A stretch of 64,000 nucleotides of DNA from Erysipelotrichaceae bacterium (GTDB lineage Bacteria > Bacillota_I > Bacilli_A > Erysipelotrichales > Erysipelotrichaceae): the NCBI GenBank assembly GCA_017539105.1, contig JAFYHQ010000045.1, forward strand, positions 54,320 through 118,319. Reading direction: 5' to 3'. The position numbers and the translations under genes are program-made. Shown piece after piece: positions 25,515 through 51,497 of the stretch (its first letter is position 1; each line of letters opens with the position of its first letter). Below the pieces are notes generated by a model that was given only the letters and a program-made list of their open reading frames with translations, had not been told where the DNA came from and searched no databases.

Positions 25515-26357
25515 ATGAAAAAGATGCTTGTAGTTCAGACAGATTTTACTTATAAAGAAGGCGCGGTAGCAGCCATGTATGGCGTGATCAAGAGCGTGGA
25601 TCCAGACATCGAGATCATCACCGCGACCCATGAGATCCCCCAGTACGATACTTGGTCGGCATCCTATCGCCTGTACCAGTATATCGACTTCTGGCCGAAA
25701 GGAACGATCTTCATTTCCGTGGTCGATCCCGGCGTAGGAACGGACCGCAGAGCCTGTGTCGCAAAGACAAGGAACGGCTACTATATCGTGACTCCGGATA
25801 ACGGTTCTCTGACACATGCGGATCATTATTTCGGAATCGAGGAAGTTAGACAGATCGATGAAACGATCAACCGTCTGCATCGCGAAGACAACGGAGCGGT
25901 ATCGATCTTTCACGGGCGCGATCTTTTCGGTTACTGTGCAGCCAGACTGGCTTCGGGGATCATTTCCTATGAAGAAGTCGGACCTGTATACGATATCTCT
26001 GAAATCGTCCGTCACGACATCAAGGAAGCGGAAATTTTTGAAGACAGGATCGAAGGAATGTTCGAGATCAATGACCCGAATTTCGGCAATCTCTGGACGA
26101 ATATCCTCTTGAGCGATTTCCTGAAAAAACACAAGATGGGCGATCTGGTTCATACCGCGATCTATCGCGACGAAGAGAAAGTCTTCGATGACGTTCTTCC
26201 ATACTACGATTCCTTCGGCAAGGCTCCGAAGCACAGCGTGATGATCTACAACAATGAGATCAATAAGATGGGTCTGGCCGAAGTGATGGGCAATCTCTGC
26301 GAAGATTATGACTTAGGCTACGGCGAAGCATACAAGGTGGTGTTCTATGATGAATAA
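25515..26357 (+). CDS. SAM hydroxide adenosyltransferase family protein (DUF62; fluorinase/chlorinase-like fold), paralog 1
   Basis: N-terminal QTDFTYKEGAVAAMYGV, plus DNG, FHGRDLF and GNLWTNI motifs, are shared with SalL/FlA/DUF62 SAM-cleaving enzymes. Start is 3 nt after the ecfT stop. Confidence 0.75.
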   Translation: MKKMLVVQTDFTYKEGAVAAMYGVIKSVDPDIEIITATHEIPQYDTWSASYRLYQYIDFWPKGTIFISVVDPGVGTDRRACVAKTRNGYYIVTPDNGSLTHADHYFGIEEVRQIDETINRLHREDNGAVSIFHGRDLFGYCAARLASGIISYEEVGPVYDISEIVRHDIKEAEIFEDRIEGMFEINDPNFGNLWTNILLSDFLKKHKMGDLVHTAIYRDEEKVFDDVLPYYDSFGKAPKHSVMIYNNEINKMGLAEVMGNLCEDYDLGYGEAYKVVFYDE

Positions 26358-27186
26358 ACTTCTGGTATTTCAGACAGACTTCGGTCTGGACGATGGGGCG
26401 ATCAGCGCCATGGAAGGCGTCGCTTTCAGCGTCGACTTCGATCTGAATATCCGCCATCTGACGCACAATATCCCTCAGTACAACATTTTTGATGCGTCCT
26501 ATCGTTTGTATCAGGCCATCAATTACTGGCCTTCAGGGACCGTTTTTGTGTCTGTAGTAGACCCCGGCGTGGGATCGGATCGCAAGGCGGTCGTCGCCAG
26601 GACGAAGAACGACTACTATGTCGTCACCCCGGACAACGGAACCCTGACCCATATCGACCGTTTCCTGGGCATCGAAGAACTGCGGGAGATCGATGAGAAG
26701 ACAAACAGGCTGGCAGGTTCGGATCTGTCTTATACGTTCCATGGCAGAGATGTCTTCGCCTATACCGGAGCCAGACTCGCCTCCGGAAAGATCACATTCG
26801 AAGAAGTAGGACCAAAGATCGATCTGAAAGATCTGGTCCGTCAGGAACTCTATGGCTGCCATCCGATCGAAAATGGCATCATGGGGCAGATCGATATCCT
26901 GGATGTCCGTTTCGGTTCCTTGTGGACTTCGATCTCTTATAAAGATTTCATCAGCTGCGGCTTCCAGATCGGCGATGACATCCTGGTCGAGATCTTCCAC
27001 AACGATCAGAAAGTCTATTCCAACCGGATCAACTATGGAAAATCTTTTGCGGATGTCGCCATCAGCGAACCGCTGATCTATATGAATTCCGCCTATCACA
27101 TGGCGGTCGCGATCAACCAGGGATCTTTCTCCAAGGTCTATGGCATCGGCGTAGGCTCCGAATGGAAGATCACCATGACCAGATGA
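26347..27186 (+). CDS. SAM hydroxide adenosyltransferase family protein (DUF62), paralog 2
   Basis: Same motif set (QTDFGLDDGAISAMEGV, DNG, FHGRDVF, GSLWTSI). It overlaps paralog 1 by 11 nt (translational coupling). Confidence 0.75.
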   Translation: MMNKLLVFQTDFGLDDGAISAMEGVAFSVDFDLNIRHLTHNIPQYNIFDASYRLYQAINYWPSGTVFVSVVDPGVGSDRKAVVARTKNDYYVVTPDNGTLTHIDRFLGIEELREIDEKTNRLAGSDLSYTFHGRDVFAYTGARLASGKITFEEVGPKIDLKDLVRQELYGCHPIENGIMGQIDILDVRFGSLWTSISYKDFISCGFQIGDDILVEIFHNDQKVYSNRINYGKSFADVAISEPLIYMNSAYHMAVAINQGSFSKVYGIGVGSEWKITMTR

Positions 27187-27268
27187 TTTAACAATTCTTT
27201 CACAAGCGACTGATATACTTTTTTTCGAATCATAAGAAAGATTATTGTATGATAGAAAGGAGGGCTTG

Positions 27269-27772
27269 ATGAATAAGAATAAAGATCTTGATATCTTTGA
27301 ACACGACGACTGGCTGAAAAAAGAAAGAGCCAGAGAAAGCAGGATCTCTGCCTGGGATTTTGATGATGCAAAGAAACTGCGTCAGGAACACGAAGATGAC
27401 TGCGACGCTGAAGATGTGGCGCAGCTGCATCGCATTGAACACAAACGCAGCAATACGATGAAAACCCCATCCTTATCCCGGATGAACGGAACGACTTCAT
27501 CAAACGATGTCGTCTGGTTCATCATCGACATCATCGCCATGTTTGTTCTGGTATTCCTGAATAACATGATATTCCGGCGCTGGGATTTCTATTGGCCGAT
27601 CATCATCCTGTTCCTGGGAATCAATCCCGGCATCTTTATCTGGCTGGCTGTCTTCAGACGCTTCCCGCCGGCAAGATTCAGTAAGCTCTTGCTGTGTATC
27701 GCGATCCTTATCGAAGTGATCGGATTCCTGTATTTTATGATTTATTATCATGGTTATTATTATTTTTTTTAG
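27269..27772 (+). CDS. Hypothetical membrane protein (acidic N-terminal cytoplasmic region, 3-4 C-terminal TM helices), upstream partner of an SPFH protein
   Basis: RBS AAGGAGGG precedes the ATG at 27269. The C-terminal half is hydrophobic. There is a 13-nt gap to the SPFH gene. Confidence 0.5.
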   Translation: MNKNKDLDIFEHDDWLKKERARESRISAWDFDDAKKLRQEHEDDCDAEDVAQLHRIEHKRSNTMKTPSLSRMNGTTSSNDVVWFIIDIIAMFVLVFLNNMIFRRWDFYWPIIILFLGINPGIFIWLAVFRRFPPARFSKLLLCIAILIEVIGFLYFMIYYHGYYYFF

Positions 27773-27785
27773 GAGGTAAAGAAGA

Positions 27786-28670
27786 ATGATTTATGTTGTG
27801 ATTATTGCATTTGTGATCCTGCTGATCCTGATGGTCCTCTTGTCATGCATCAGCATCGTTCCTCAGGGCAATGCCTGGGTCGTGGAACGGCTGGGTAAGT
27901 ATTCCGATACCTGGAAGGCAGGTCTGCATCTCAAGACGCCTGTTCTGGAAAGAGTCGTACGTAAGATTTCCTTAAAGGAACAGGTTGCCGACTTCGAACC
28001 GCAATCCGTTATTACCAAAGATAACGTCACGATGAACGTCGACTCCGTCGTCTATTTCCAGGTCATCGATCCGAAAGCGCTGACTTATGGCGTCGAACGT
28101 CCGATTGCGGCGATCGAGAATCTCTGTGCTACCACATTGAGAAACATCATCGGTTCCATGACGCTGGATGAAACGCTGACTTCCAGAGAAAAGATCAACA
28201 ATGAGACGATCAAAGTCCTGGATGAAGCCACCAACAAGTGGGGTATCGATATCACCCGTGTCGAGGTCCAGAATATCACTCCTCCGAAGTCCATTCAGGA
28301 AGCCATGGAGAAGCAGATGAAGGCAGAACGTGAAAAGAGAGCGGTCATCCTGACGGCAGAAGGCGAGAAGCAGTCTGCGATCACCAGAGCGGAAGGCGAG
28401 AAGGAGTCTGCGATCTTAAGAGCGGATGCAGTCAGAGAAGAACGTATCCGTACCGCGCAGGGTGAAGCGGAAGCGATCCGGGCCGTTGCGGAAGCGCAGG
28501 CAAAAGCCATCGAAATGGTCAACAGCGCCCATCCTTCGAAAGAATATCTGTCGATAAGATCCATGGAAGCGGCAGAAAAAATGGCTGACGGTCAGTCAAC
28601 CAAGATCATCGTTCCATCCGATCTGCAGGATATCGCTTCATTAGCTACGATCTTCAAAGAAAGCAAGTAG
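27786..28670 (+). CDS. SPFH/Band-7 family protein (stomatin/QmcA-like)
   Basis: N-terminal TM followed by the SPFH domain (IVPQGNAWVVERLGKY...), then a coiled-coil Ala/Glu-rich region. Confidence 0.85.
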   Translation: MIYVVIIAFVILLILMVLLSCISIVPQGNAWVVERLGKYSDTWKAGLHLKTPVLERVVRKISLKEQVADFEPQSVITKDNVTMNVDSVVYFQVIDPKALTYGVERPIAAIENLCATTLRNIIGSMTLDETLTSREKINNETIKVLDEATNKWGIDITRVEVQNITPPKSIQEAMEKQMKAEREKRAVILTAEGEKQSAITRAEGEKESAILRADAVREERIRTAQGEAEAIRAVAEAQAKAIEMVNSAHPSKEYLSIRSMEAAEKMADGQSTKIIVPSDLQDIASLATIFKESK

Positions 28671-29780: not shown

Positions 29781-31124
29781 TTAATCGGCTAATGATCCGA
29801 ACGGATCCCATGGATCGAGAACGATCGGTTTCTTTTCCAGTGCTTTCAGCTGTTTCTGGCTGAGATATTTCTTATGAACGACGGCTTCAAAGACATACTG
29901 ATCGAACCAGCTGTCGGAACAGATGTAGTAACCCTTGTTGGCGGACTTGTCGCCCCAGGAATTTTCGATCTTCCAGCGGGTCGGCTTATTCTTTACAAGA
30001 TTGACTCCGGTAAAGACCATTGCGTGATTCATTGCAGATTCTCTCGCATCCAGCATATCCGCTTTGGACATTCCGAGATCCATATCGAAGGTTTTCTCAT
30101 AATCCATAAGATCGTCATCCCAGAGACCCAGCTGCCGGTCTCCGTCCTTGCCGCAGTCGCAGCCGAACCAGACGATCTCTTTTTCTTTCAGCTGTTTCAG
30201 GATCAGATTCTTGAAATCATCCAGAGGAAGATTCAGGTAGAAGACTTCGTTTTCCGTTCCTGCGACATTCCCCAGGTATTTTACAGTATAGGTCTGGTAG
30301 TATTTCTTGTCATCGGTCGGACCGTTGATGATGCCTACATAATCATCGAGATCGACGCCAAGATACTTTTCATACATCTCCTGCGGAGTCACATCGTAAT
30401 AGGCATGATACTTGTCTTTCTTGTCGTAGTATTCGAAGGTGAATGTCTTCGGAGGAACGCCGAAGCAGTCGCATAACAGTCCGTAGCATTCTTTCAGGCA
30501 CTGATCTTTCATTTCTTTGATCTGTGTGTCTTTTTCTTTTTCAGGGACTTTCTTGAGATCAGTCGCAAACTTTCTCAGACGCCGGTTGATGATTCCATTC
30601 ATCGCTCTTGTATGGGAAGACTGGTACGTTTCCGGCATGGCTGTCTTCGGACAGAGACCATATTTCTTGACCAGGGATACCATCATATCCCACTGTCCGC
30701 CGTCACCGATCGCCGTCTGCAGAAGATAGCGTACGGTTTCATCATTCAAAGGCGTATCGGCTTCTTTGATCATGCATTCCAGGAAATAGTTGATCTTCTC
30801 CAGCTTGTCGTAGAAAGCGATGTAGTTCTGCGAGAATTCGAACTGTTCCTTGATGTTGTATTTTTTGGCCAGGATCTCTCTTAAGATCGTCATCGAGGAG
30901 AACAGCCAGCAGCGTCCTGAGGACATCTGGTTGTTTACAGGAAGCGTTTCGATGTCGATGGAGAAGAAATTGGGGTTCTCCGCTTTGGCTTCCAGGCGTC
31001 TTGAAATCAGTGTGAGATCGTTTTCTGTCAGTGCATTGCGAACCACTCTGGCTTTTTCGTCTTTGAGATATTCTTTGTTTAGTTCTTCAAGAAATTTCTT
31101 GCTGATTGCGTGTAGTTTTGCCAT
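29781..31124 (-). CDS. pepC: Aminopeptidase C (C1-family bleomycin-hydrolase-like)
   Basis: The catalytic Cys motif QMSSGRCWLFS, a 447-aa length and the C-terminal ...WDPFGSLA, which is typical of PepC. Confidence 0.9.
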   Translation of the reverse strand: MAKLHAISKKFLEELNKEYLKDEKARVVRNALTENDLTLISRRLEAKAENPNFFSIDIETLPVNNQMSSGRCWLFSSMTILREILAKKYNIKEQFEFSQNYIAFYDKLEKINYFLECMIKEADTPLNDETVRYLLQTAIGDGGQWDMMVSLVKKYGLCPKTAMPETYQSSHTRAMNGIINRRLRKFATDLKKVPEKEKDTQIKEMKDQCLKECYGLLCDCFGVPPKTFTFEYYDKKDKYHAYYDVTPQEMYEKYLGVDLDDYVGIINGPTDDKKYYQTYTVKYLGNVAGTENEVFYLNLPLDDFKNLILKQLKEKEIVWFGCDCGKDGDRQLGLWDDDLMDYEKTFDMDLGMSKADMLDARESAMNHAMVFTGVNLVKNKPTRWKIENSWGDKSANKGYYICSDSWFDQYVFEAVVHKKYLSQKQLKALEKKPIVLDPWDPFGSLAD

Positions 31125-31340
31125 ATGTTATCCCTCTTTCACTATCCATCTTAACATGATTATCTAAAAGTCGTCTGAATGATGAAATAAAGCAAATAAT
31201 GAATGACTCGATATATGCTTATATTTCCCAAGTTTCATATCAGAAAAAAACACATTCTACAGGAAATAGCTCTATTGTGGAATATACCCTTATGATTTAA
31301 AATATTATTATTGATAAATGCTACATTTGGAGGTTTTATA

Positions 31341-32660
31341 ATGGCTATCACAACAGTAATCAAATATGAAGGGGATAACAGTACCTTTATCTGGAAGCAT
31401 CCTACGGTAAACTTTAATAGCATGACCCAGCTGATCGTCTATGAATCGCAGGAAGCTGTTTTCATGATGAACGGCATGATCATGGATACTTTCGGTCCCG
31501 GAAAGTACAACCTGGATACCGAATCGCTGCCGATATTAGGTAAATTTGTCGATAATCTGGTCTATGGCGATTCATCCTTTACGGCAGATGTTTATTTCAT
31601 CAATCAGACCGTACAGATGGCTCTGAAATGGGGCACATCGCCAAAAGTAAGGTTCATTGAACCAAATACAGGCATTCCTTTGGAAATCGGCGCTTCAGGA
31701 AATCTCAATCTGAGAGTGAAAGATTCCAAGAAGCTGCTGGTCAAGCTGGTAGGAACGACTTCAGGCGTTGCCTGGGACAGCAAAGATTCCACCGATCTGA
31801 GGAAATCATCTGATTCTTCCAATCTGACAAAATCATTGCAGGATCTGTTCAGACCTCTAATCAATACAGCTTTCAGAGTGAATTTCGCTCCGATCGTCAA
31901 AGAAAACAACATCAATATCATCGAGATCGATCAGCACGTCGAACAGCTCGCAAAACCGATGCATGAGAAAATCAACGAAGGTTTTGAAGAGTACGGACTG
32001 TCTGTCGTCGATTTCTATATCACCGATATCGTTCTTCCTGAAGAAGACAGGAACTTCAAGAGAATCAAGGATATCATGGCTTCTTCTTATCTGGGTGTAA
32101 AAGAAGCCCAAGTAGAAGCAGATATCATTGCCGCAAGAAGACTAGCTGAATTGGAACAGGAGCAAACCGCTACTGCGAAGAAGAAAATGGAATTAGAAAG
32201 AGAACTACTGCAGGCGCAGCTGGATGCTCAGAAGACGAAACTATCCGGATTAGCTGAAGCAGAAGTCATGGCTGCCCAAGGCGTGACTAAGAAAGACTAC
32301 CTGCAGGCGGATGTTCAGAAAGCATATGCGGAAGGTTTAGGGAAAGCAGGTTCCAATGGGGGCACAGGGCCATCGATTGCCGGAGACATGATGCAGATGC
32401 AGATGGGCATGATGGCAGCGAATGCGATGTCCGGTCAGATGAAAGAAATGATGTCGGGAATGACTGAGAATGATGCACAGCCTCAACAAGCAAATGTCGT
32501 ATATTGTCCGAACTGTGGCGCTCAGCTTCCAGCTGGAGCGAAATTCTGTATGTCTTGTGGTCAGCCGTTGATAGCAAGTGATAAATGTCCGAATTGCGGA
32601 AGCGAGATTCCAGAAGGTGCGAAATTCTGCCTGAACTGCGGAACAAAGATTGGAGAATAA
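31341..32660 (+). CDS. SPFH-like domain protein with a C-terminal double zinc ribbon (COG4260-type: stomatin/prohibitin-like with C-terminal Zn-ribbon; YdjI-like)
   Basis: The N-terminal ~300 aa carry an SPFH-like fold signature (TVIKYEGDNSTFIWKHP...). A coiled coil follows, then two CxxC...CxxC pairs (CPNCGAQL..CMSCG; CPNCGSEI..CLNCG). RBS GGAGG precedes the ATG at 31341. Confidence 0.7.
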   Translation: MAITTVIKYEGDNSTFIWKHPTVNFNSMTQLIVYESQEAVFMMNGMIMDTFGPGKYNLDTESLPILGKFVDNLVYGDSSFTADVYFINQTVQMALKWGTSPKVRFIEPNTGIPLEIGASGNLNLRVKDSKKLLVKLVGTTSGVAWDSKDSTDLRKSSDSSNLTKSLQDLFRPLINTAFRVNFAPIVKENNINIIEIDQHVEQLAKPMHEKINEGFEEYGLSVVDFYITDIVLPEEDRNFKRIKDIMASSYLGVKEAQVEADIIAARRLAELEQEQTATAKKKMELERELLQAQLDAQKTKLSGLAEAEVMAAQGVTKKDYLQADVQKAYAEGLGKAGSNGGTGPSIAGDMMQMQMGMMAANAMSGQMKEMMSGMTENDAQPQQANVVYCPNCGAQLPAGAKFCMSCGQPLIASDKCPNCGSEIPEGAKFCLNCGTKIGE

Positions 32661-32662
32661 AT

Positions 32663-33664
32663 ATGTCAAAAAAGTTTATCATTTTTCTGACTCTATGGCT
32701 TGTTGCTGTAGCAACACTGAATACTTTGGCTTGGACTCTTGATATCGATAGAGATAAGCTTTTTATCATCAACTACGTTATTCTGAATGTTACCTGGCTG
32801 TTGCAGCTGATCATTTCAATATTCAAGAGACGCAAAGAAGAAGATTTTTCCAGCTTGAAGTTTTTGATCTATCAGGTCGTTCTTTTGGTGATTCTGTCGC
32901 TTCTGGCAGTCTATTACAAGTTTGATTGGAAAGCATTACTGGTTCTGGCGCTTCTCTACTTGAGTATCGTCAGCGGATCAAAAGGCTATAATGCCTATCT
33001 GATTGCCTGGATGGTCATCTTCGTTGCGACTGTAGTGATCTACAGGGTCATTCCGAATGAGGAAGGCGATGTATTCGATGTCGGGTACACTGTTATGATC
33101 ATTGCTCTGGTCATCCAGCTGATCATATCTTATTTTGCTTTACTGAATAAAGAAAGAGATGTTGCGATTCCAACATTCATCATTTCGGTTATAGGATTGG
33201 TCGTGCTGGCGGCGTTCGATCTGGCAATGATCGAATATCTGTATAATCCTGCATTCCGCTACTTTATCATGACTCACGCTTATTTACGCATCTTTATCTT
33301 CAGAATCGCGGATCTGGGAAGCTGGGGGTTTGCTGTAGTCAATGTCGTTGTGCTGGCTTTGCAGTATCTTGTTACTCTGGCAGTCAATATCGGTCAGAAG
33401 AAGAATGTCGAGAGAGACAGACACTTTGTCGAAAAGACTGAAACCATGAGCTCATTAGCAAACAAAGTCAAGAAAATGGCGGACAGTACCGGAAACGAAG
33501 ACATCGGACGTCTCTACGAAGCGCTGCGTCTTGCCGATAAAGCTTCAAAGAACAGCGAAATCGAAAACAGAATCGCAGAAGAGGTCGCTAGACTTAAGAC
33601 TGTTGATTCAAATGAAATGAAAGAAGAAGTTGACTTGATCATCTCGCTGCTGAACGAGAGATAG
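32663..33664 (+). CDS. Polytopic membrane protein (6-7 TM) with a C-terminal cytoplasmic helical tail; co-operonic with the SPFH-Zn-ribbon gene and the TIR genes
   Basis: ATG at 32663 lies 3 nt after the previous stop. It is hydrophobic up to about residue 270, then charged and helical. The next gene starts 33 nt downstream with no terminator between them. Confidence 0.55.
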   Translation: MSKKFIIFLTLWLVAVATLNTLAWTLDIDRDKLFIINYVILNVTWLLQLIISIFKRRKEEDFSSLKFLIYQVVLLVILSLLAVYYKFDWKALLVLALLYLSIVSGSKGYNAYLIAWMVIFVATVVIYRVIPNEEGDVFDVGYTVMIIALVIQLIISYFALLNKERDVAIPTFIISVIGLVVLAAFDLAMIEYLYNPAFRYFIMTHAYLRIFIFRIADLGSWGFAVVNVVVLALQYLVTLAVNIGQKKNVERDRHFVEKTETMSSLANKVKKMADSTGNEDIGRLYEALRLADKASKNSEIENRIAEEVARLKTVDSNEMKEEVDLIISLLNER

Positions 33665-33697
33665 ATTTCTGATCTATAAAAAAAGGGGAACAATAAT

Positions 33698-36600
33698 ATG
33701 CCTGTTTTGAAGTGCAAAATGTGTGGTGGCGACCTGAATGTCACCGATGACTCGGGTGTCGTTGTTTGCGAATACTGTGGAACAAAACAAACCATATCCC
33801 GCACAAATGATGATGTAATAAATAACCTATACAACAGAGCCAATAACCTTCGCTTGAAAAATGAATTTGATAAAGCTCAGAATGTTTATGAGAAGATCAT
33901 TGAACAAGACGCTGACGATGCGGAAGCTTATTGGTCTTTGGTGCTGTGCAAATACGGTATCGAATATGTAGAGGATCCTTTATCACATAAAAGAGTGCCT
34001 ACCGTAAACAGGACACAATACACATCGATCTTTGCGGATCACGATTATAAAGAAGCAATCAGCCGTGCCAATCCTGAGCAAAAGATCGTCTATGAACAGG
34101 AAGCTCAAGCTATTGATAAAATTCAGAAAGGTATCTTGGAAATATCCAAAAAGGAAGAACCTTTCGATATCTTTATTTGTTACAAAGAAACAGATGAAAA
34201 AGGCCACAGAACAATTGACTCCGTAATTGCGAACGATTTATATCATGAACTCGTTAACGAAGGATACAAAGTATTTTTCTCGAAAATCACATTGGAAGAT
34301 AAACTGGGCGAAGCATATGAACCATATATTTTTGCGGCACTCAATTCTGCCAAAGTCATGGTCGTGTTAGGAACGAAAGCAGATTATTTCAACGCAGTAT
34401 GGGTTAAAAATGAATGGTCAAGATATCTTCAGCTGATTGCTAAAGGCGAAAAGAAGACGCTCATTCCTGCATATAGAGATATGGATCCATATGATTTGCC
34501 GGAAGAGTTCGCTTATCTGCAGGCACTTGATATGTCCAAGATCGGTTTTGTGCAGGATCTGCTTAGAGGCATACGAAAACTGGTTGCTACCGAAGAGAAA
34601 AATGATACAAGAGAGATTATCGTTGAGAATCATAATGCTAACGCAGAACCTTTGCTGAAGCGTGCATTCATCTTTCTGGAAGACGGCAATTTCCAAAGTG
34701 CCGACGAATACTGTGACAAAGTTCTTGATATCGATCCAGAAAACGGAAAAGCCTATCTTGGAAAACTGATGGTTCAGCAAAAGATGAACACGGTTTCTGC
34801 TTTATTAGAAAATTATGAACATCTCTATGGTGATCCTGATTATGAAAGAACTAGTATTTCTGAGGTGATGGATGACTATCAGGATATCATTGCATCTAAA
34901 GTTGAAGAATATACGATTCCATCTTATCTGGAAGAAGATAAGTTAAAAGAATTATTCAGGAAATACAATACCAGCTATGATTCCAAAGTACCTGGGCTTG
35001 AGAAACAGAAAGAAATGATAATCAATCTGTTCAATGATGACCGCTCCATCTCAAAGATTCGACGTTATGGCAATCAAGATATTACATCGCTCTTTGATAA
35101 AGTAATCGAGTCTTATGATAAACGGATCGAAGAAGCAAAAGACAACGACAAAGAAACGATCGCTTTGATCAAACAGGGAGTCGTTGACTTCATGAACGAA
35201 ACTGAGGACTCAATTAAGAACCTATATGATGAGGAATCAAAAAAACGTGAAGAGGATTATGAAAAAGCGGTCGAAGATTATGAAAAGACAAATCTCATTG
35301 ACGTATTGAAGCAGAATATTGAAGTTTTCACTAAATGTGGTGATTATCGCGATAGTAAAGAGTATATCGAGAGATGCAACGTCAAGATCGCTGAGCTGAA
35401 AGAACAGCACAAGCGGGAAGAGGAAGCTGCAGCCAAGAAAAAACAGAAAACGATCTTGCTGACGGTTGCTGCAGTTATTCTGTCTATCATTGCTTTTGTG
35501 TTCTATCAGAACGTCATCCTGCCAAACAACAAGTATAATCAGGCTCATATGTATGTCGAGAACGGCGAATATGAACAAGCTGTCGCAATATATAAAGAAC
35601 TAGGTGAATACAGAGACTGTCAGGAGCTGTATAAAGATGCGTTCTATAAGCAAGGACAGGACGCTTTGCAAAAAGAAAACTATGAAACTGCAATCGCTGT
35701 TTTCACTGAATTAGGAACTTATGAAGCATCCGGTGAGAATCTGAAGCAAGCAATATATGGGTATGCGTTAAGTCTTGTGGAAAAACTGAATTATGACGAG
35801 GCGTTAGAAGAGTTCGATCTCATAAATGAATATAAAGATGTTGCTGATAAGATTCTTGATACAAAATACCATAAAGCGCAGTATCTATATGAACAGAAGA
35901 AATATGATGATGCAATAGCTTTGTTTACAGAGATAGTAGATTATGAGGATTCGAATAACTTTATTCTTAAGGTCAAATATGATAAAGCACTTTGGCTGCT
36001 TGAGAATAAAAACTATGATGAATCTATCGCGCTGTTTGATGAGATATCCGGATTTGAAGATGCTGCCAAACAAAAGAAAGAAGCAGAGAAAGAAAAAGAT
36101 AAAAACACGGTCAAGATCCCTTCTGTCTTGGATAAGAGTCAGGAGAAAGCCGAATCCTTACTGAAAGAGGCAGATCTGAAATATACAGTTAAAACCGATA
36201 CATCGCAGAATCAAGTGCCGGGAACTGTTATCAAAGTCAGCCCTGATCAGGGAACGCGTGTAATGAAAGGCTCCACTGTTACAATTACAGTTGCTAAAGG
36301 ATCATCGCAGTATTCTACTTATGCTGGCGATAATAATAACAACGTTTTATATCAGGTCAACGTATCTGGAGGTGTCAGCGATCTGAAGATCAGAAGCGCT
36401 CCGACAGCGATGGATAACAATATCCTGGATAAAGCTAAAACCGGTCAAATATTTAATGTGTATGAAACGCTTTCCAACGAAGGTTACACATGGCTGAGAA
36501 TCGGAAACAAGAGATGGATCGCCGATAATGGATCTTGGGTATATAGAGACACCAAGTGCGACAATAGAAATGGCAATTTCACTTTTGTTACAGCTACAAT

Positions 36601-36802
36601 CAGCGATCCGGACAACGACCATGTCAGTCTTTATGATAATCCTGTAGGAAATGAAAACATGAGAAACTGGGTTGGCAGCGTTTATAACGGAGAAACAGTC
36701 AAAGTATATTTCCGTTTCCATGATGGCACTTACTGGTGGTATAAAGTCGGCGTCGATCGTTGGATTAAGGATAGCGGTGAAGGCAGGGTCAAGATTAACT
36801 AG
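33698..36802 (+). CDS. Single-pass membrane TIR-domain protein, paralog A: cytoplasmic Zn-ribbon + helical module + TIR; TM; extracellular TPR-like repeats + PASTA + 2x SH3b
   Basis: Zn-ribbon CKMCGG...CEYCGT. TIR signature FDIFICYKETDEKG...SAKVMVVLGTKADYFNAVWVKNEWSRYL, with the alpha-C Glu of the SxW..E motif conserved. Single TM TILLTVAAVILSIIAFVFY at about aa 584. PASTA-like segment (TVKIPSVLDKSQEKAESLLKEADLKYTV...GSTVTITVAKG). Two SH3_3-like segments (...IRSAPTAMDNNILDKAKTGQIFNVYETLSNEGYTWLRIGNKRWIADNG...). Confidence 0.8.
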   Translation: MPVLKCKMCGGDLNVTDDSGVVVCEYCGTKQTISRTNDDVINNLYNRANNLRLKNEFDKAQNVYEKIIEQDADDAEAYWSLVLCKYGIEYVEDPLSHKRVPTVNRTQYTSIFADHDYKEAISRANPEQKIVYEQEAQAIDKIQKGILEISKKEEPFDIFICYKETDEKGHRTIDSVIANDLYHELVNEGYKVFFSKITLEDKLGEAYEPYIFAALNSAKVMVVLGTKADYFNAVWVKNEWSRYLQLIAKGEKKTLIPAYRDMDPYDLPEEFAYLQALDMSKIGFVQDLLRGIRKLVATEEKNDTREIIVENHNANAEPLLKRAFIFLEDGNFQSADEYCDKVLDIDPENGKAYLGKLMVQQKMNTVSALLENYEHLYGDPDYERTSISEVMDDYQDIIASKVEEYTIPSYLEEDKLKELFRKYNTSYDSKVPGLEKQKEMIINLFNDDRSISKIRRYGNQDITSLFDKVIESYDKRIEEAKDNDKETIALIKQGVVDFMNETEDSIKNLYDEESKKREEDYEKAVEDYEKTNLIDVLKQNIEVFTKCGDYRDSKEYIERCNVKIAELKEQHKREEEAAAKKKQKTILLTVAAVILSIIAFVFYQNVILPNNKYNQAHMYVENGEYEQAVAIYKELGEYRDCQELYKDAFYKQGQDALQKENYETAIAVFTELGTYEASGENLKQAIYGYALSLVEKLNYDEALEEFDLINEYKDVADKILDTKYHKAQYLYEQKKYDDAIALFTEIVDYEDSNNFILKVKYDKALWLLENKNYDESIALFDEISGFEDAAKQKKEAEKEKDKNTVKIPSVLDKSQEKAESLLKEADLKYTVKTDTSQNQVPGTVIKVSPDQGTRVMKGSTVTITVAKGSSQYSTYAGDNNNNVLYQVNVSGGVSDLKIRSAPTAMDNNILDKAKTGQIFNVYETLSNEGYTWLRIGNKRWIADNGSWVYRDTKCDNRNGNFTFVTATISDPDNDHVSLYDNPVGNENMRNWVGSVYNGETVKVYFRFHDGTYWWYKVGVDRWIKDSGEGRVKIN

Positions 36803-36838
36803 CGGCAGATTTGTTTATAAGCATATATTCAAGGGGGT

Positions 36839-38848
36839 ATGATGATGTTTTTGAAGTGCAAAATGTGTGGCGGAGACTTGAATATTGATAAAGGTGCTAC
36901 CACATGTAAATGTGAATATTGCGGTACGATTCAGACGATACCTGTATTGGACGACGAAAAGAAGAACAAACTTTTCGAAAGAGCCAACAGATTGCGTTTC
37001 AATAACGAATTCGATAAAGCTTATTCCGTCTATCATGACATCATAAACGACTTCCCGACAGAAGCAGAAGCCTACTGGGGGCTGCTTCTGTGCAAATACG
37101 GCATCGAATATGTTGAAGACCCTTATACTCACAAAAGGATCCCTACATGCCATAGATCTTCCTTTGAATCCATCTTTGATGATGATACTTTTGAAATGGT
37201 CATGGAGAATGCCGATGTCGTTGCCAGGGAGATCTACAGGAACGAAGCCAAGGCAATTGAAGAATTGCGGAAAAAGATCATTGAAGTCTCCAATAAGGAA
37301 GAACCATATGACATCTTTATCTGTTATAAAGAAGCCGATGAACAGAATAACAGGACGATAGATTCTGTCATAGCGCAGGATGTTTATAATGCTTTGACCG
37401 AAAAAGGCTACAGAGTGTTCTTCTCAAGGATCTCTCTTGAAGATAAACTGGGGCAGGAATATGAACCATACATTTTTGCAGCGCTGAACAGTGCGAAAGT
37501 CATGCTGGTATTCGGCACCAAGTATGATTATTTCAATGCTGTCTGGGTCAAGAATGAATGGTCAAGATATCTGCAGCTTATAGCTAAAGGCGAAAAGAAG
37601 ACACTCATACCATGTTACAGAGATATCGACGCCTATGACATGCCGAAAGAATTCCAGCATCTCCAGGCACAGGATATGGGCAAGGTAGGAGCGATACAGG
37701 ATCTGCTGCGAGGGATCGAAAAGGTCATGCCGAAGCAGGAAAAGACCGTTGTCAAGGAAACGGTTGCTGATCATGTTGAAACGGTTAAAAAAATAGAAAC
37801 CCCTGTAGAAGAAAAGCCGGTTGAGAAACAAAAGAAATCGTCCCTGGCCTTAATACTTTTCATCGTAGCCTGCATCGTAGTTGCTGCACTGGTACCGACA
37901 GTTATCATTCCGAAGTACAAATATAACAAAGCGATGGATTTGTTAGAATCCGGCAGTTATGAAGCCGCATATGCGATCCTGGAGGAAATAGGGAATGTTG
38001 AAGCGATTGCCTCAAACAAATATGATCGTGCGATCGCTTTGCTGGAATCCGGTGATTTTGAAAAAGCATACGCACTTCTGGAAGAGATCGGGAACGTTGA
38101 AGCAATTGCATCGAATATGTATGATCGTGCAGTCGCCTCGATCAATACCAGAGATTATGAAACAGCCTATATGCTGCTGAATGGACTGGATTATAAGGAC
38201 AGCGCAGACTTGCTGGATTCCATCCTTCCGGAATATCAGAGATTATTGATTTCCAGAGCGGAAGTTGGTTCTTATGTTTCGTTTGGTTCCTACGAACAAG
38301 ACAATAATACCGCAAACGGACAAGAAGAAATCGAATGGCTCGTGCTTTCAAAAGAAGGCGGTCTGATATGGCTGGTAAGCAGGTATGCTTTGGATTGCAA
38401 GCCATTCAATTACTCGCTTACTGATGTCACTTGGGAGACCTGCTCATTGCGCTCATGGCTGAATGATTCGTTCTATCATAACGCATTTGATTCGACGGAA
38501 CAGCAGATCATTGCCAGTAAATATGTAAGTGCCGACAGGAATCCTGACTATGCGGTTTCTTCCGGCAACAGCACGACAGATAAAGTGTTCCTGTTAAGCG
38601 TTTCAGAAGTAAACAGATATCTGGGATCTAATTCTGCAAGAACATGCTCCGGAACGGATTATGCATATGCACAAGGCGCATATAAGAGCAATGCAGGAAA
38701 TTGCTGGTGGTGGCTTCGTACGCATGGCGGAAGTTCCAGTTATGCCGTGAATGTCTGGGATTACGGCGCAATCGACAGCTATGGAGGCTGGGTCGACAAT
38801 AACAAATGTGGTATCCGTCCTGCGATATGTATCGAAATGGGATATTAG
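36839..38848 (+). CDS. Single-pass membrane TIR-domain protein, paralog B: same cytoplasmic Zn-ribbon + TIR module; TM; extracellular 33-aa tandem repeats + C-terminal CWWWLR...GIRPA domain (DUF6273-like)
   Basis: The N-terminal 300 aa are ~65% identical to paralog A (MCGGDLN..CEYCGT, AEAYWGLLLCKYGIEYVEDP, TIR PYDIFICYKEADEQ...NAVWVKNEWSRYLQL). TM is LALILFIVACIVVAALVPTVII. Two tandem 99-bp repeats lie at 37940-38137. The C-terminus carries a CWWWLR...NKCGIRPAICIE motif. Confidence 0.8.
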   Translation: MMMFLKCKMCGGDLNIDKGATTCKCEYCGTIQTIPVLDDEKKNKLFERANRLRFNNEFDKAYSVYHDIINDFPTEAEAYWGLLLCKYGIEYVEDPYTHKRIPTCHRSSFESIFDDDTFEMVMENADVVAREIYRNEAKAIEELRKKIIEVSNKEEPYDIFICYKEADEQNNRTIDSVIAQDVYNALTEKGYRVFFSRISLEDKLGQEYEPYIFAALNSAKVMLVFGTKYDYFNAVWVKNEWSRYLQLIAKGEKKTLIPCYRDIDAYDMPKEFQHLQAQDMGKVGAIQDLLRGIEKVMPKQEKTVVKETVADHVETVKKIETPVEEKPVEKQKKSSLALILFIVACIVVAALVPTVIIPKYKYNKAMDLLESGSYEAAYAILEEIGNVEAIASNKYDRAIALLESGDFEKAYALLEEIGNVEAIASNMYDRAVASINTRDYETAYMLLNGLDYKDSADLLDSILPEYQRLLISRAEVGSYVSFGSYEQDNNTANGQEEIEWLVLSKEGGLIWLVSRYALDCKPFNYSLTDVTWETCSLRSWLNDSFYHNAFDSTEQQIIASKYVSADRNPDYAVSSGNSTTDKVFLLSVSEVNRYLGSNSARTCSGTDYAYAQGAYKSNAGNCWWWLRTHGGSSSYAVNVWDYGAIDSYGGWVDNNKCGIRPAICIEMGY

Positions 38849-38881
38849 GATTTCATGTATCTGATTAGGAGTTAATCAATT

Positions 38882-39648
38882 GTGCCTTTATTGAAATGTA
38901 AAATGTGTGGCGGCAGCCTGAACATCATAGAAGGTCAGACAGTCTGCGAATGCGAATACTGCGGTACGAAACAGACGCTTCCAAAACTGGATAGCGAAAG
39001 AAAACTCAATCTGTATGACCGTGCTTCCTTTTTAAGAAGAAGCAACGATTTTGATAAAGCTACAGCCATTTATGAGCAGATCCTTGCTGAAGATAAGACG
39101 GATGCCGAAGCATACTGGTCTCTGGTTTTGTGCAAGTATGGCGTCGAATATGTGGAAGATCCTTCCTCTCATAAGAGACTACCGACAGTCAACAGGACAC
39201 AATTGACCTCGATCTTCAATGATCCGGATTATAAAGAAGCACTTAACCACGCTTCTGTTGAACAGAAGATTATCTATGAAGAAGAAGCAAAAAAGATTGA
39301 TGATATCCAAAAAAGCATATTCAAACTAAAGAGGTAATAACAAATGTTGGGAATAACACATACGATAGTGTTTTCTTATTAGGCACTGATGAAGTAAAAG
39401 AATACTTAAATACCATCCAGATAAGACGATGTCAGGTTTCTGAATATGCTTTCAGTCGACACGCGACAAGAGCAAGCGATGGTTACTGTTGGTGGTGGCT
39501 TCGCACTATTAGTGGTGATCATTCCAGAGCTGTTGTTGTTTATTCTGATGGCAGTATATATAGTACCGGGAATCTCGCTAATACAACAAGTAATACTGTT
39601 CGTCCTGCCATGTGGATTACTTTACCTTGATTTAGCCCAGTTATTCAT
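38882..39648 (+). pseudogene. Decayed third paralog of the Zn-ribbon-TIR membrane protein family (intact N-terminal 151 codons, internal deletion removing TIR and TM, frameshifted C-terminal CWWWLR...VRPAMWI remnant)
   Basis: 38882-39337 encodes MPLLKCKMCGGSLN..CEYCGT..AEAYWSLVLCKYGVEYVEDP, then stops. Frame +1 across 39373-39648 translates to VFLLGTDEVKEYLN...GYCWWWLRT...SNTVRPAMWITLP, which is homologous to the C-terminus of paralog B. Confidence 0.6.
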
Positions 39649-39820
39649 CTAAATATACTTATAGTTAATTACATGTCGATCATTTGGTTGACATGTTTTT
39701 TCTATTGAAAATGTCAGGAAGATCAACAGACAATGACTTTATCGTAGCAGTTTAATAGTAATAATCAGACATATTATATTTCAGGCTATGATTCAATGAT
39801 TCGTAAGTTATAATTGAACT

Positions 39821-41794
39821 ATGGATGATAGGAAATTCAAACTGGTATCACCCTTCACTCCTACCGGAGATCAGCCGGAAGCAATCGAAAAGCTGGTCGA
39901 AGGGATCAACGAAGGCAAAGAGGAACAGGTCCTTTTAGGTGCGACCGGTACGGGAAAAACATTTACGATCGCCAATGTCATCGCACAAGTCAACAAGCCT
40001 ACTCTGGTCTTCGCCCATAATAAGACTTTGGCAGGCCAGCTTTATTCGGAATTCAAGGCTTTATTCCCGGAGAATGCAGTCGAATACTTCATCTCCAACT
40101 TCGACTATTATCAGCCGGAAGCCTACATGCCCAAGACCGATACCTATATTGAAAAGAATGCCGTCACCAACGACGAGATCGACATGCTGAGGATGTCCGC
40201 ATACAACTCTCTATTGGAACGAAGGGATGTCATTGTCGTCGCGTCTGTGGCCTGCATCTATGCCGGCAGCAACCCTAAGGATTACAAAGATATGTTTTTT
40301 ACGCTGAAGGTTGGAGAGATCATCGACCGTCAGGATCTGATTAAAAGATTAGTCGTCATGCAGTATCAGCGCAACGATGTGGACAAGCTGCGCGGAACGT
40401 TCTCCGTCAAAGGCGATGTCATCGAGATCTGTCCGGGACATACCGATGCCTTCATCATACGGGTTGAAATGTTTGATGACGAAGTCGAGAGGATCACCGA
40501 GATCGAACCTGTCACCAAGAATCTGATCAATGGCTATACGATCTATTCCTTCTTCCCGGCATCCGGCTATGCGCGCAAGAAAGAAGACCTTCTGATTGCC
40601 TGCGACAATATCGAAAAAGAACTGGAAGAACGGCTCGAATACTTCAAAGAAAAAGGCAAAGCCGTGGAATATGAACGTCTGGAACAGCGCTGCCGCTATG
40701 ATATCGAGGCTTTAAGAGAAATGGGCATGTGCTCGGGCATTGAGAACTATGCGATGCATATCGACCACCGTGTACCGGGAGAGAGACCTTACAACCTCTT
40801 TGATTATTTCGGCGATGATTTCCTGATCGTGGTCGATGAATCCCATGCGTCTCTGCCGCAGATCCGGGGCATGTACAATGGCGATCATCAGCGCAAGCTG
40901 ACTCTTGTGGAATACGGTTTCCGTCTGCCTAGCGCTCTGGAAAACCGCCCGATGCGATTCGATGAATGGGAAGAGATCAATGCCCAGCGCATCTATATGT
41001 CCGCGACTCCGGGAGATTATGAACTGGAACGCAGCGGTGAAGTCGTAGAACAGCTCATCCGTCCGACCGGACTGGTCGATCCAAAAGTGGAAGTACGCAA
41101 GACCAACGGCCAGATCGACGACCTGATGCAGGAGATAAATGCAACGATCGAGAAAAATCAGCGTACCCTGATCACGACACTGACAGTCAAGATGGCCGAA
41201 GATCTCAGCGACTATCTGCAGAAGCTGAACTATAAGGTTGCCTATCTCCATCATGAAACCAAGACGCTGGAACGAAGCGAGATCATCCACGACCTGAGAG
41301 AAGGAAAATACGATGTCCTGGTCGGAATCAATCTGTTAAGAGAAGGACTGGATATTCCGGAAGTATCCCTGATCGCGATCCTGGATGCGGACAAAGAAGG
41401 CTTCCTAAGAAGCTCCCGTTCCCTGATCCAGACCATCGGCCGTGCCGCCCGTAATGTGGATGGCAGGGTCATCATGTATGCGGACGAGATCACTGATTCC
41501 ATGAAACAGGCCATCGATGAGACCGAACGACGCAGGAAGATACAGATCGCCTATAATGAGGAACATCACATCACTCCGCGTTCCGTCGTAAAAGAAGTCA
41601 ACGAAGTCATCCATTCGAAAGAAACCAAAGAAATGGCTCGCAAATATAACCAGAAGCATAAGCACACGAAGGCGGAAAAAGAAAAACTCATGGCTTCGAT
41701 CGAAGCGGAAATGAAACAGGCTGCAAAACAGCTGAATTTCGAGCGTGCCGCCGAACTGAGGGATATCCTGTATGAACTCCGAGACGAAGATTGA
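39821..41794 (+). CDS. uvrB: Excinuclease ABC subunit B
   Basis: Walker A GATGTGKT, helicase motifs, the beta-hairpin region and the C-terminal UVR domain (ELRDILYEL). Confidence 0.95.
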
Positions 41795-51410: not shown

Positions 51411-51497
51411 TTAATAGAAAACGGATGTGTTATTATATTTATGAAAAATATAGAATTATTAATTTAAAAGAGTATGAAACAAAGGGGTATCAGGATT

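Follow-up and report, generated by a model that had tools for sequence, protein, structure and literature searches.

A conserved membrane cassette of an SPFH protein, a polytopic membrane protein and transmembrane TIR proteins in gut and rumen Firmicutes

In the PspA-YdjGHI (SamGHI) system of Bacillus subtilis, the SPFH protein YdjI, a member of the Pfam family Band_7_1 with a C-terminal zinc finger, is soluble and requires YdjG and YdjH to reach the membrane (PMC8581546). These membrane partners recruit the SPFH protein, which tempers their signalling (PMC8581546; bioRxiv 10.64898/2026.02.06.704340), and when the SPFH protein is lost the two membrane sensors fall out of balance (bioRxiv 10.64898/2026.02.06.704340). 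In other work, lectin sensors diversified by diversity-generating retroelements (DGRs), together with TIR effectors, have been proposed to act as antigen sensors in multicellular bacteria (PMC10907252; PMC7159879). Here we describe a gene cassette that places an SPFH protein of the YdjI family beside transmembrane TIR proteins. It lies in a 64,000-nt stretch of the genome of an Erysipelotrichaceae bacterium (contig JAFYHQ010000045.1, positions 54,320 to 118,319; hereafter the window).

For convenience, the three components are designated S (the SPFH protein), M (a polytopic membrane protein of a family without any annotation) and T (a single-pass protein with an N-terminal zinc ribbon, TPR, TIR and a variable ectodomain). 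The window open reading frames (ORFs) are one copy of a conserved three-component S-M-T(n) membrane cassette found in gut and rumen Firmicutes, and S, M and T very probably constitute one functional module. As for function, we infer, with a probability of roughly 0.55, that S and M act in a conflict or immune system, as a scaffold for, or a restraint on, TIR NADase receptors at the cell surface. No description linking SPFH proteins with TIR receptors was found in the literature covered, which comprised open-access papers and bioRxiv.

Linkage of S, M and T

A census seeded with S comprises 80 loci from GTDB species representatives, taken from an S alignment scan at 41-51% identity. The loci come from Lachnospiraceae, Oscillospiraceae, Acutalibacteraceae, Ruminococcus, Erysipelotrichaceae and others, and the scan gave at least 581 confirmed matches. 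Cultured carriers include strains of Blautia, Anaerotignum, Pseudoflavonifractor and Ruminococcus flavefaciens. When the ORFs of the 80 loci are clustered, only S (75 or more loci), M (62 loci) and T (60 loci, 101 genes) recur; the next commonest ORF family is present in 8 of the 80. Because only these three families recur, the S-M-T linkage is far beyond chance. M is directly 3′ of S in 57 of the 71 loci with enough flank for evaluation, and T is within 4 kb on the same strand in 37 of 43 evaluable S loci. In the opposite direction, a census of 80 metagenome loci seeded with T finds S or M in 65 of them, and in 13 of the 14 that have at least 3 kb on both flanks.

The genes are arranged as S-M-T(n), sometimes as T-S-M-T, on a single strand throughout. 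The median gaps are 15 nt from S to M, 97 nt from M to T and 106 nt from T to T, and 112 of 120 S-to-M gaps do not exceed 50 nt. The earlier note on this DNA, made from the window alone, had proposed that an SPFH scaffold and TIR receptors cooperate, an idea to be dropped if the genes were not co-conserved in relatives. The three families are linked in both directions, in fixed order and on the same strand, in hundreds of species, and this two-way co-conservation, together with the lack of a separating terminator-like site (see below), supports one functional unit.

The cassette is common, with more than 6,500 S homologues that share the SPFH and zinc-ribbon architecture (clusters at 90% identity), 4,108 representatives of the T module (clusters at 50% identity, E <= 1e-30) and the species representatives counted above. 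In two relatives, whose S proteins are 79% and 75% identical to that of the window, the cassette occupies other genomic contexts; one has four T genes, and the other has three, together with a SIR2_2 gene and variants of the RCC1 type. The window strain recovered from three other samples has an identical cassette layout.

In the window, the cassette consists of five co-directional ORFs (Table 1). In the order S, M, T-A, T-B and fifth ORF, the spacers are 2, 33, 36 and 33 nt. A Shine-Dalgarno match precedes every start, that of S being GGAGG, 8 nt 5′ of the ATG. On the + strand, a terminator scan finds no site between 31341 and 39250 and a weak terminator-like site at 39252-39268, within the fifth-ORF fragment; the hairpin 5′ of uvrB is the sole strong terminator-like site downstream of 31341. 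The earlier note had placed S, M and the T genes in one operon, to be abandoned if a terminator separated them. The spacers of 2-36 nt and the shared strand bear this out, and the scan shows no terminator between the genes on the + strand. Its five-gene unit survives as five same-strand ORFs, the fifth being a decayed T paralog and not a gene of its own. Comparative evidence thus gives strong support to co-operonic organisation and functional coupling, and suggests that the cassette is transcribed as a single unit.

In the presumed promoter region 5′ of S, the scan finds no sigma-70 match of at least 9/12 on the + strand, and there is no Rfam match; nor was any Rfam family found in the whole of 29-40 kb of the window. 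Promoter-like matches are at background level (30 found, 26.6 ± 5.3 expected from shuffled sequence), and we therefore claim no promoter. A single 9/12 match in the T-A/T-B spacer, at 36814-36843, is given no weight. The GC content of the cassette is 0.38-0.44, compared with ~0.48-0.50 in the flanks.

Table 1 Coordinates of the cassette, its surroundings and features of related loci. Positions are those of the window unless a related locus (L and a number) is named.
Feature	Position	Strand	Description
Cassette	31341-39337	+	Five co-directional ORFs between the divergent pepC-like gene and uvrB
S	31341-32660	+	439 aa; soluble SPFH protein (Band_7_1, Pfam), long coiled-coil helix, two C-terminal zinc ribbons
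M	32663-33664	+	333 aa; polytopic membrane protein, unannotated family; hidden Markov model (HMM) of 59 locus M proteins, E 4e-21
T-A	33698-36802	+	1034 aa; zinc ribbon, TPR, TIR, TPR/coiled coil, transmembrane (TM) segment 585-603, TPR-like repeats, PASTA, SH3_3
T-B	36839-38848	+	669 aa; zinc ribbon, TPR, TIR, TM segment 339-357, TPR-like repeats, DUF6273
T-C, N-terminal remnant (fifth ORF)	38882-39337	+	151 aa; GTG start, ribbon and TPR only, ends just before the TIR position
T-C, C-terminal remnant	39340-39630	+	Last ~95 aa of DUF6273, other frame, stop-free; translation, BLASTP
Terminator-like hairpin and T-run	39671-39696	+	11-pair stem, TTTTTTCTATT tail; likely end of the transcription unit, 5′ of uvrB
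Intergenic region	31125-31340	+	5′ of S, divergent from the pepC-like gene; presumed promoter region
pepC-like gene	29781-31124	-	Divergent upstream neighbour of the cassette
uvrB	39821-41794		Downstream neighbour of the cassette
SAM hydroxide adenosyltransferase-type paralogs	25515-27186		Two, tandem and overlapping (SAM_HAT_N, SAM_HAT_C)
Second SPFH gene	27245-28670		294 aa, PF01145 Band_7
Long ORF	51474-59435		2653 aa
DGR-bearing cassette	L157:7876-16424		Bounds of the full order given in the text
SHOCT-tailed S	L157:7876-9030		
SIR2_2 or SIR2-like gene	L167:7126-8109		
SIR2_2 or SIR2-like gene	L168:8071-9054		
SIR2_2 or SIR2-like gene	L021:9031-9990		
SIR2_2 or SIR2-like gene	L001:17967-19199		
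SIR2_2 or SIR2-like gene	L038:12107-13291		
Short ribbon-TM protein	L041:12253-13047		TIR-less cassette
Short ribbon-TM protein	L052:12136-13337		TIR-less cassette
Short ribbon-TM protein	L066:12103-12516		TIR-less cassette
Short ribbon-TM protein	L069:9383-9946		TIR-less cassette

Features of the three components

S matches PF13421 Band_7_1 over residues 26-235 with 126.4 bits (cutoff 24) and an E value of 1.5e-36, and Pfam places its two Zn_Ribbon_1/DZR ribbons within residues 386-436. It has no hydrophobic or TM segment (maximum KD19 0.84). The initial description of S as an SPFH protein with two C-terminal ribbons is thereby upheld, as is its likeness to YdjI, which lies in the Band_7_1 domain, the C-terminal zinc ribbon and the missing TM segment. 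By sequence, S is a member of the Band_7_1/YdjI family. The AlphaFold2 model of S has a low overall pLDDT of 58.5, with 70-85 in the core and a helix at residues 237-312. It matches stomatin, HflK/C, prohibitin, QmcA and flotillin in Foldseek (E 4e-9 to 1e-6, probability 1.0), and the match to cage-forming SPFH proteins spans more than 300 aligned columns. As modelled, the SPFH core and long helix of S are those of proteins that form rings or cages, but S lacks an anchor of its own. A PDB sequence search with the S profile returned zinc-finger proteins only.

The S tail is variable across loci. Mostly it carries two or three zinc ribbons, and many S proteins have SHOCT instead, with M and T still adjoining; the latter include the S protein of L157 and about 20 further S genes in L081-L160. 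Because SHOCT-tailed S proteins still partner M and T, a ribbon-to-ribbon pairing of S and T is not required. The zinc ribbons of window S are thus present as first described but are not essential to the partnership. A few S proteins (e.g. in L079 and L051) have N-terminal ribbons too.

M has no match in Pfam, NCBIfam or PADLOC. A word-indexed search with window M returned only M itself, and its homology was established by clustering of locus ORFs and an HMM and then by a profile search. At least 417 proteins belong to the family, every one annotated as hypothetical, and no Pfam domain is found in window M, in three family representatives or in the 120 M homologues listed, for which the precomputed field is empty. 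The canonical M protein, of ~232 aa, has four TM helices and a cytoplasmic three-helix tail that bears a conserved R-Y-S-D-P motif. Window M departs from this form, with an extra N-terminal four-helix membrane block and a degenerate R-Y-S-D-P motif. Residues 1-62 and 107-209 each match the N-terminal part of the M HMM, and the extra block resembles the first two helices of the M model. The predicted structure has ~8 hydrophobic helices followed by the cytoplasmic three-helix tail (pLDDT 67.6 overall, 84-94 in the tail), so that M is polytopic as first described, with more helices than the six or seven then counted. Foldseek finds no fold match for the M model in the PDB (best E 2.4). The R-Y-S-D-P tail of M and a conserved 'EAYWGLVLCKYGIEYVEDP' surface could be scaffolding interfaces.

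In both intact T proteins, TIR_2 follows an N-terminal CxxC..CxxC ribbon and spans residues ~158-281, with an E value of 3.4e-12 (47.3 bits) in T-A and 2.1e-12 (48.0 bits) in T-B (cutoff 28). Pfam also finds PASTA (E 4.4e-14) and SH3_3 in T-A and DUF6273 (E 4.7e-27) at the C-terminus of T-B. The cytoplasmic modules of T-A and T-B are 63% identical; their ectodomains have only the repeat part in common. In T-B, a tandem 99-nt duplication (37917-38114, 73% identical) encodes two 33-aa TPR-like units just outside the TM segment, and similar units recur in T-A (35897-36034).

The catalytic-glutamate motif of the TIR domain is WVKNEW in T-A, where the glutamate is E239, and is invariant in the module alignment; the pattern W-[VI]-[KRQ]-N-E-W is kept in 188 of the 188 T proteins that have the TIR region. 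E239 aligns with the glutamate of the catalytic motif SKWCLMEL in the TIR domain of flax L6, an alignment that is weak on its own (E 0.69). Each T protein has one TM segment with lysine clusters on its N-terminal side, which fits a predicted topology with the N-terminus inside and the C-terminus outside. A TcpB-type secreted TIR virulence factor was considered and rejected, as the TIR domain is N-terminal, on the cytoplasmic side of the sole TM segment, and there is no signal peptide. A PDB sequence search with the T-module profile gave spurious repeat matches to designed WD40 proteins and weak TIR matches only.

Among the T homologues, the module is always N-terminal, in proteins of 467-3073 aa, and the region outside the membrane is variable. 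The ectodomains of 96 T proteins comprise 48 with DUF6273, 10 with RCC1-like propellers and 5 with LRR; Flg_new, WG repeats and TM2 occur once each. DUF6273 has been described as a C-type-lectin-like fold that serves in phage receptor-binding proteins diversified by DGRs (PMC10743442). When the window strain is compared with a close relative, identity is 79% for S, 60-77% for the T modules, 34-45% for the ectodomains and 36% for M.

The fifth ORF is 62% identical to residues 1-151 of T-A and matches the T HMM with an E value of 1e-68; it contains no TIR domain and no TM segment. The stop-free stretch that follows it is 41% identical to residues 576-667 of T-B (BLASTP, E 7e-23). The two are read as the remnants of a third T copy, T-C, which has suffered an internal deletion and decayed; the fifth ORF is also present in the same strain from the three other samples. 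The C-terminal remnant was also considered as a DGR template for T-B. This was rejected: its DNA repeat with the 3′ end of T-B is at most 26 nt, the window contains no adenine-biased repeat pair and no reverse transcriptase, and the stretch is part of the deleted paralog.

Retroelements, SIR2 genes and comparison with described systems

All loci were scanned for repeat pairs whose mismatches fall on the adenines of one copy. Template repeat/variable repeat (TR/VR) pairs with 13-26 mismatches each were found in five related loci (L157, L159, L083, L096 and L100), and 85-100% of the mismatches are at TR adenines. In all five, the VR is the 3′ end of a T gene, encoding DUF6273, and the TR is ~700 nt downstream. 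The full order in L157 is S(SHOCT)-M-T(DUF6273, VR)-bAvd-TR-reverse transcriptase-integrase, the reverse transcriptase being RVT_1. In some genomes, then, the T ectodomain is rewritten by what these repeats identify as a DGR. Such targeting identifies the ectodomain as a surface that binds ligands and is under pressure to diversify. Only a minority of the cassettes carry a DGR.

SIR2_2 or SIR2-like genes are located inside the cassettes of L167/L168, L021, L001 and L038. In L167 and L168 the SIR2 gene directly follows M, and in L167 the next gene encodes a T-type ribbon and TPR head with RCC1 in the place of TIR. These arrangements are consistent with a swapping of NAD-consuming effectors. An FRG-domain gene in L167 matches the PADLOC candidate PDC-S15.

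The T module has no match in 50,697 phage genomes and 72,556 plasmids. It occurs in 3 of 2.9 million IMG/VR contigs, each time with S and/or M adjoining. Carriage by phages or plasmids was rejected on this near-total absence; the S-M-T cassette is a chromosomal host system.

Among described systems, PspA-YdjGHI resembles the cassette in its soluble Band_7_1 SPFH protein with a C-terminal ribbon, whose gene adjoins those of a membrane protein and of a single-pass membrane protein with an N-terminal ribbon. The two differ in the membrane protein, which is of the TPM type in YdjH (PMC11237479), whereas M belongs to an unannotated four-TM family, in the window with the extra N-terminal block. They also differ in the single-pass protein: YdjG has two ribbons and an NTF2-like domain, whereas T has one N-terminal ribbon, TPR, TIR and a variable ectodomain. 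Pfam finds no NTF2-like match in T, and only the ribbon and TM layout is common to both. In addition, the gene order is G-H-I in the one and S-M-T in the other, and the partner gene of the cassette is amplified into paralog arrays. No PspA_IM30 gene is present within 10 kb on either side of the cassette in the window strain, and none is a recurrent neighbour in the 80 loci. Three defining features were looked for and are absent, and the S-M-T cassette is not a PspA-YdjGHI operon.

The proposed DGR antigen sensors have in common with T a C-terminal lectin-fold sensor that is hypermutable by a DGR, is coupled to TIR and is proposed to recognise varying non-self ligands; the DUF6273 of T-B is of the lectin-fold kind that DGRs diversify (PMC10743442). 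Those sensors are STAND NTPases or ternary modules of MoxR-vWA (VMAP) with TIR or peptidase effectors, and are mostly cytoplasmic. In contrast, the S-M-T cassette has no NTPase, its sensor is external, on a single-pass receptor, and its other components are an SPFH protein and a four-TM protein. It is found in unicellular gut and rumen Firmicutes rather than in multicellular bacteria, with DGRs in a minority of cassettes and none in the window.

With Thoeris and other bacterial TIR NADases, the cassette shares TIR_2 with the conserved catalytic glutamate and, occasionally, a SIR2-family gene. It differs in that T is a transmembrane receptor with a sensor of its own, and S and M have no Thoeris counterpart. 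The window contains no ThsA-type effector (SIR2-SLOG or Macro), PADLOC gives no Ths match for the window proteins, and the NCBIfam model ThcB4 scores 20.2 bits against a cutoff of 220. The cassette is not Thoeris. Domain-level matches below threshold in PADLOC and NCBIfam (the PASTA part of PD-T4-6, PDC-S66, ThcB4) were rejected as evidence of membership.

The resemblance of T to Toll-like receptors is one of analogy and not of membership. In both, one TM segment joins a cytoplasmic TIR domain to an extracellular ligand domain, which in some T proteins is LRR, and the T genes are located beside a gene of the flotillin/stomatin family. However, the domain order is reversed in T, with an N-terminal TIR, and only the TIR domain is homologous. 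Unlike the TIR domain of Toll-like receptors, the bacterial one keeps the NADase glutamate and is probably enzymatic rather than an adaptor platform.

Proposed function and alternative explanations

SPFH cages enclose client membrane proteins, as in HflK/C-FtsH and stomatin, and known bacterial TIR NADases provide the basis for a path from TIR assembly and NAD+ cleavage to growth arrest or abortive infection. By analogy with YdjG and YdjH, which bring YdjI to the membrane, M would anchor S on the cytoplasmic side of the membrane, and the S-M assembly would corral or restrain the cytoplasmic modules of T. An external ligand at the ectodomain (the candidates being phage receptor-binding proteins, foreign glycans and cell-wall fragments), or a local perturbation of the membrane, would then lead to self-association of the TIR domains and cleavage of NAD+. 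The resulting NAD+ depletion, or a signal nucleotide, would cause growth arrest or abortive infection. With T paralogs in tandem (in the window two intact copies and a decayed one), more kinds of ligand would be recognised.

A bolder proposal is that T proteins are pattern-recognition receptors that sense phage particles or other foreign surfaces outside the cell, before genome entry, through variable and sometimes DGR-hypermutated lectin, LRR or RCC1 ectodomains. The response would come from the cytoplasmic TIR NADase, whose clustering an M-anchored SPFH cage would control. We put this forward tentatively, as a possibility with the odds against it. If correct, Toll-like receptors working in flotillin/stomatin microdomains would have an equivalent in prokaryotes, and abortive infection would for the first time be known to be set off at the cell surface. 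Should S and M control a surface-sensing TIR NADase, SPFH scaffolds would gain a concrete bacterial client, and the YdjGHI/SamGHI model would extend from stress signalling to immunity. The cassette could also serve as a tractable bacterial model for TIR receptors held inactive in membrane microdomains and as a model for the tuning of receptor specificity by DGRs, and it would bear on phage-host dynamics among the Firmicutes of gut and rumen, in which tests of defence systems have been few.

Several observations weigh against control of TIR NADase receptors by S and M in an immune system. NADase activity, topology, contacts among S, M and T, and operon structure are all inferred, and the confidence of the S and M models is low to moderate (pLDDT 58.5 and 67.6). 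In PADLOC system models, the five window proteins have only weak domain-level matches, and the 64-kb window contains neither a TR/VR pair nor a SIR2 gene. The flanking genes here are the housekeeping genes pepC, marR and uvrB, with no defence island, and elsewhere the flanks are variable. Defence systems are usually patchy in distribution, and the cassette, present in hundreds of species, is less so. PASTA and SH3_3 in T-A are typical of cell-wall sensing and suit envelope surveillance equally well. Finally, ~14% of evaluable S-M pairs lack a TIR-bearing partner, so S and M can work without TIR; in such TIR-less cassettes they are often flanked by short one-TM proteins with the same N-terminal (L/F)KCKxCGG..CEYCG ribbon. 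This suggests a core of S, M and a ribbon-TM protein, the last of which would, in T, carry TPR, TIR and a sensor in addition. The short ribbon-TM proteins may be the ancestral, YdjG-like partner.

The cassette could instead be an envelope-stress module of the YdjGHI/SamGHI type, which senses membrane or cell-wall damage (e.g. muropeptides via PASTA and SH3) and organises repair or signalling, with TIR as an interaction or signalling domain and not a suicide NADase. S has the Pfam family and architecture of YdjI, with the C-terminal zinc ribbon and no TM segment, and its partners, a membrane protein and a single-pass protein with an N-terminal zinc ribbon, recall YdjH and YdjG. The short zinc-ribbon-TM proteins beside S-M in TIR-less loci, PASTA and SH3_3 in T-A, and the housekeeping flanking genes point the same way. 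We nevertheless consider this explanation unlikely. PspA is missing, both within 10 kb in the window strain and as a recurrent neighbour in the 80 loci, M lacks the TPM domain and T the NTF2-like domain. The catalytic glutamate is invariant in 188 of 188 TIR domains, half of the ectodomains are lectin-like DUF6273 and not cell-wall binders, and DGR hypermutation and embedded SIR2 genes would be unusual for a housekeeping stress sensor. The earlier note had left the choice between envelope stress and defence undecided; with no PspA in the window or its relatives, Psp-type envelope stress becomes the weaker option.

Surface recognition that serves some end other than defence against phages is a further explanation, and to us also an improbable one. 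Here the lectin, LRR and RCC1 ectodomains would bind glycans of the host or of neighbours, in adhesion, kin or competitor recognition or niche sensing; through TIR, a bound ligand would give rise to a metabolic or dormancy signal, with the receptors clustered by S-M. The ectodomain repertoire suits this, as do the wide occurrence of the cassette in gut and rumen anaerobes and the absence of the T module from phage and plasmid collections. Surface targets of DGRs are classically ligand-binding, and DUF6273 is C-type-lectin-like (PMC10743442). On the other hand, in the literature found, the combination of TIR with SIR2 and with DGR-diversified sensors is tied to conflict systems, and Pfam detects no LPXTG or S-layer adhesin-type anchoring in the window T proteins. 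That the three families are accidental neighbours, with S-M an independent membrane scaffold beside which T genes accumulate without functional coupling, is very improbable. The M-to-T and T-to-T gaps (medians 97 and 106 nt) are wider than the S-to-M gap, some S-M pairs have no T, and the T arrays of L092 and L158 have no S-M within more than 6 kb. Against this, the association is two-way across families and orders, order and strand are fixed while the other neighbours vary, and all three IMG/VR contigs with the T module have S and/or M adjoining.

Elsewhere in the window, the second SPFH gene lies 3 kb upstream of the cassette. It is preceded by an ORF of 167-175 aa with no Pfam match, and the two may form a stomatin/NfeD-type pair. 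The tandem SAM hydroxide adenosyltransferase-type paralogs are listed in Table 1. The 2653-aa ORF has a signal-peptide-like start and a GC content of 0.38-0.41, and probably encodes a giant surface protein.

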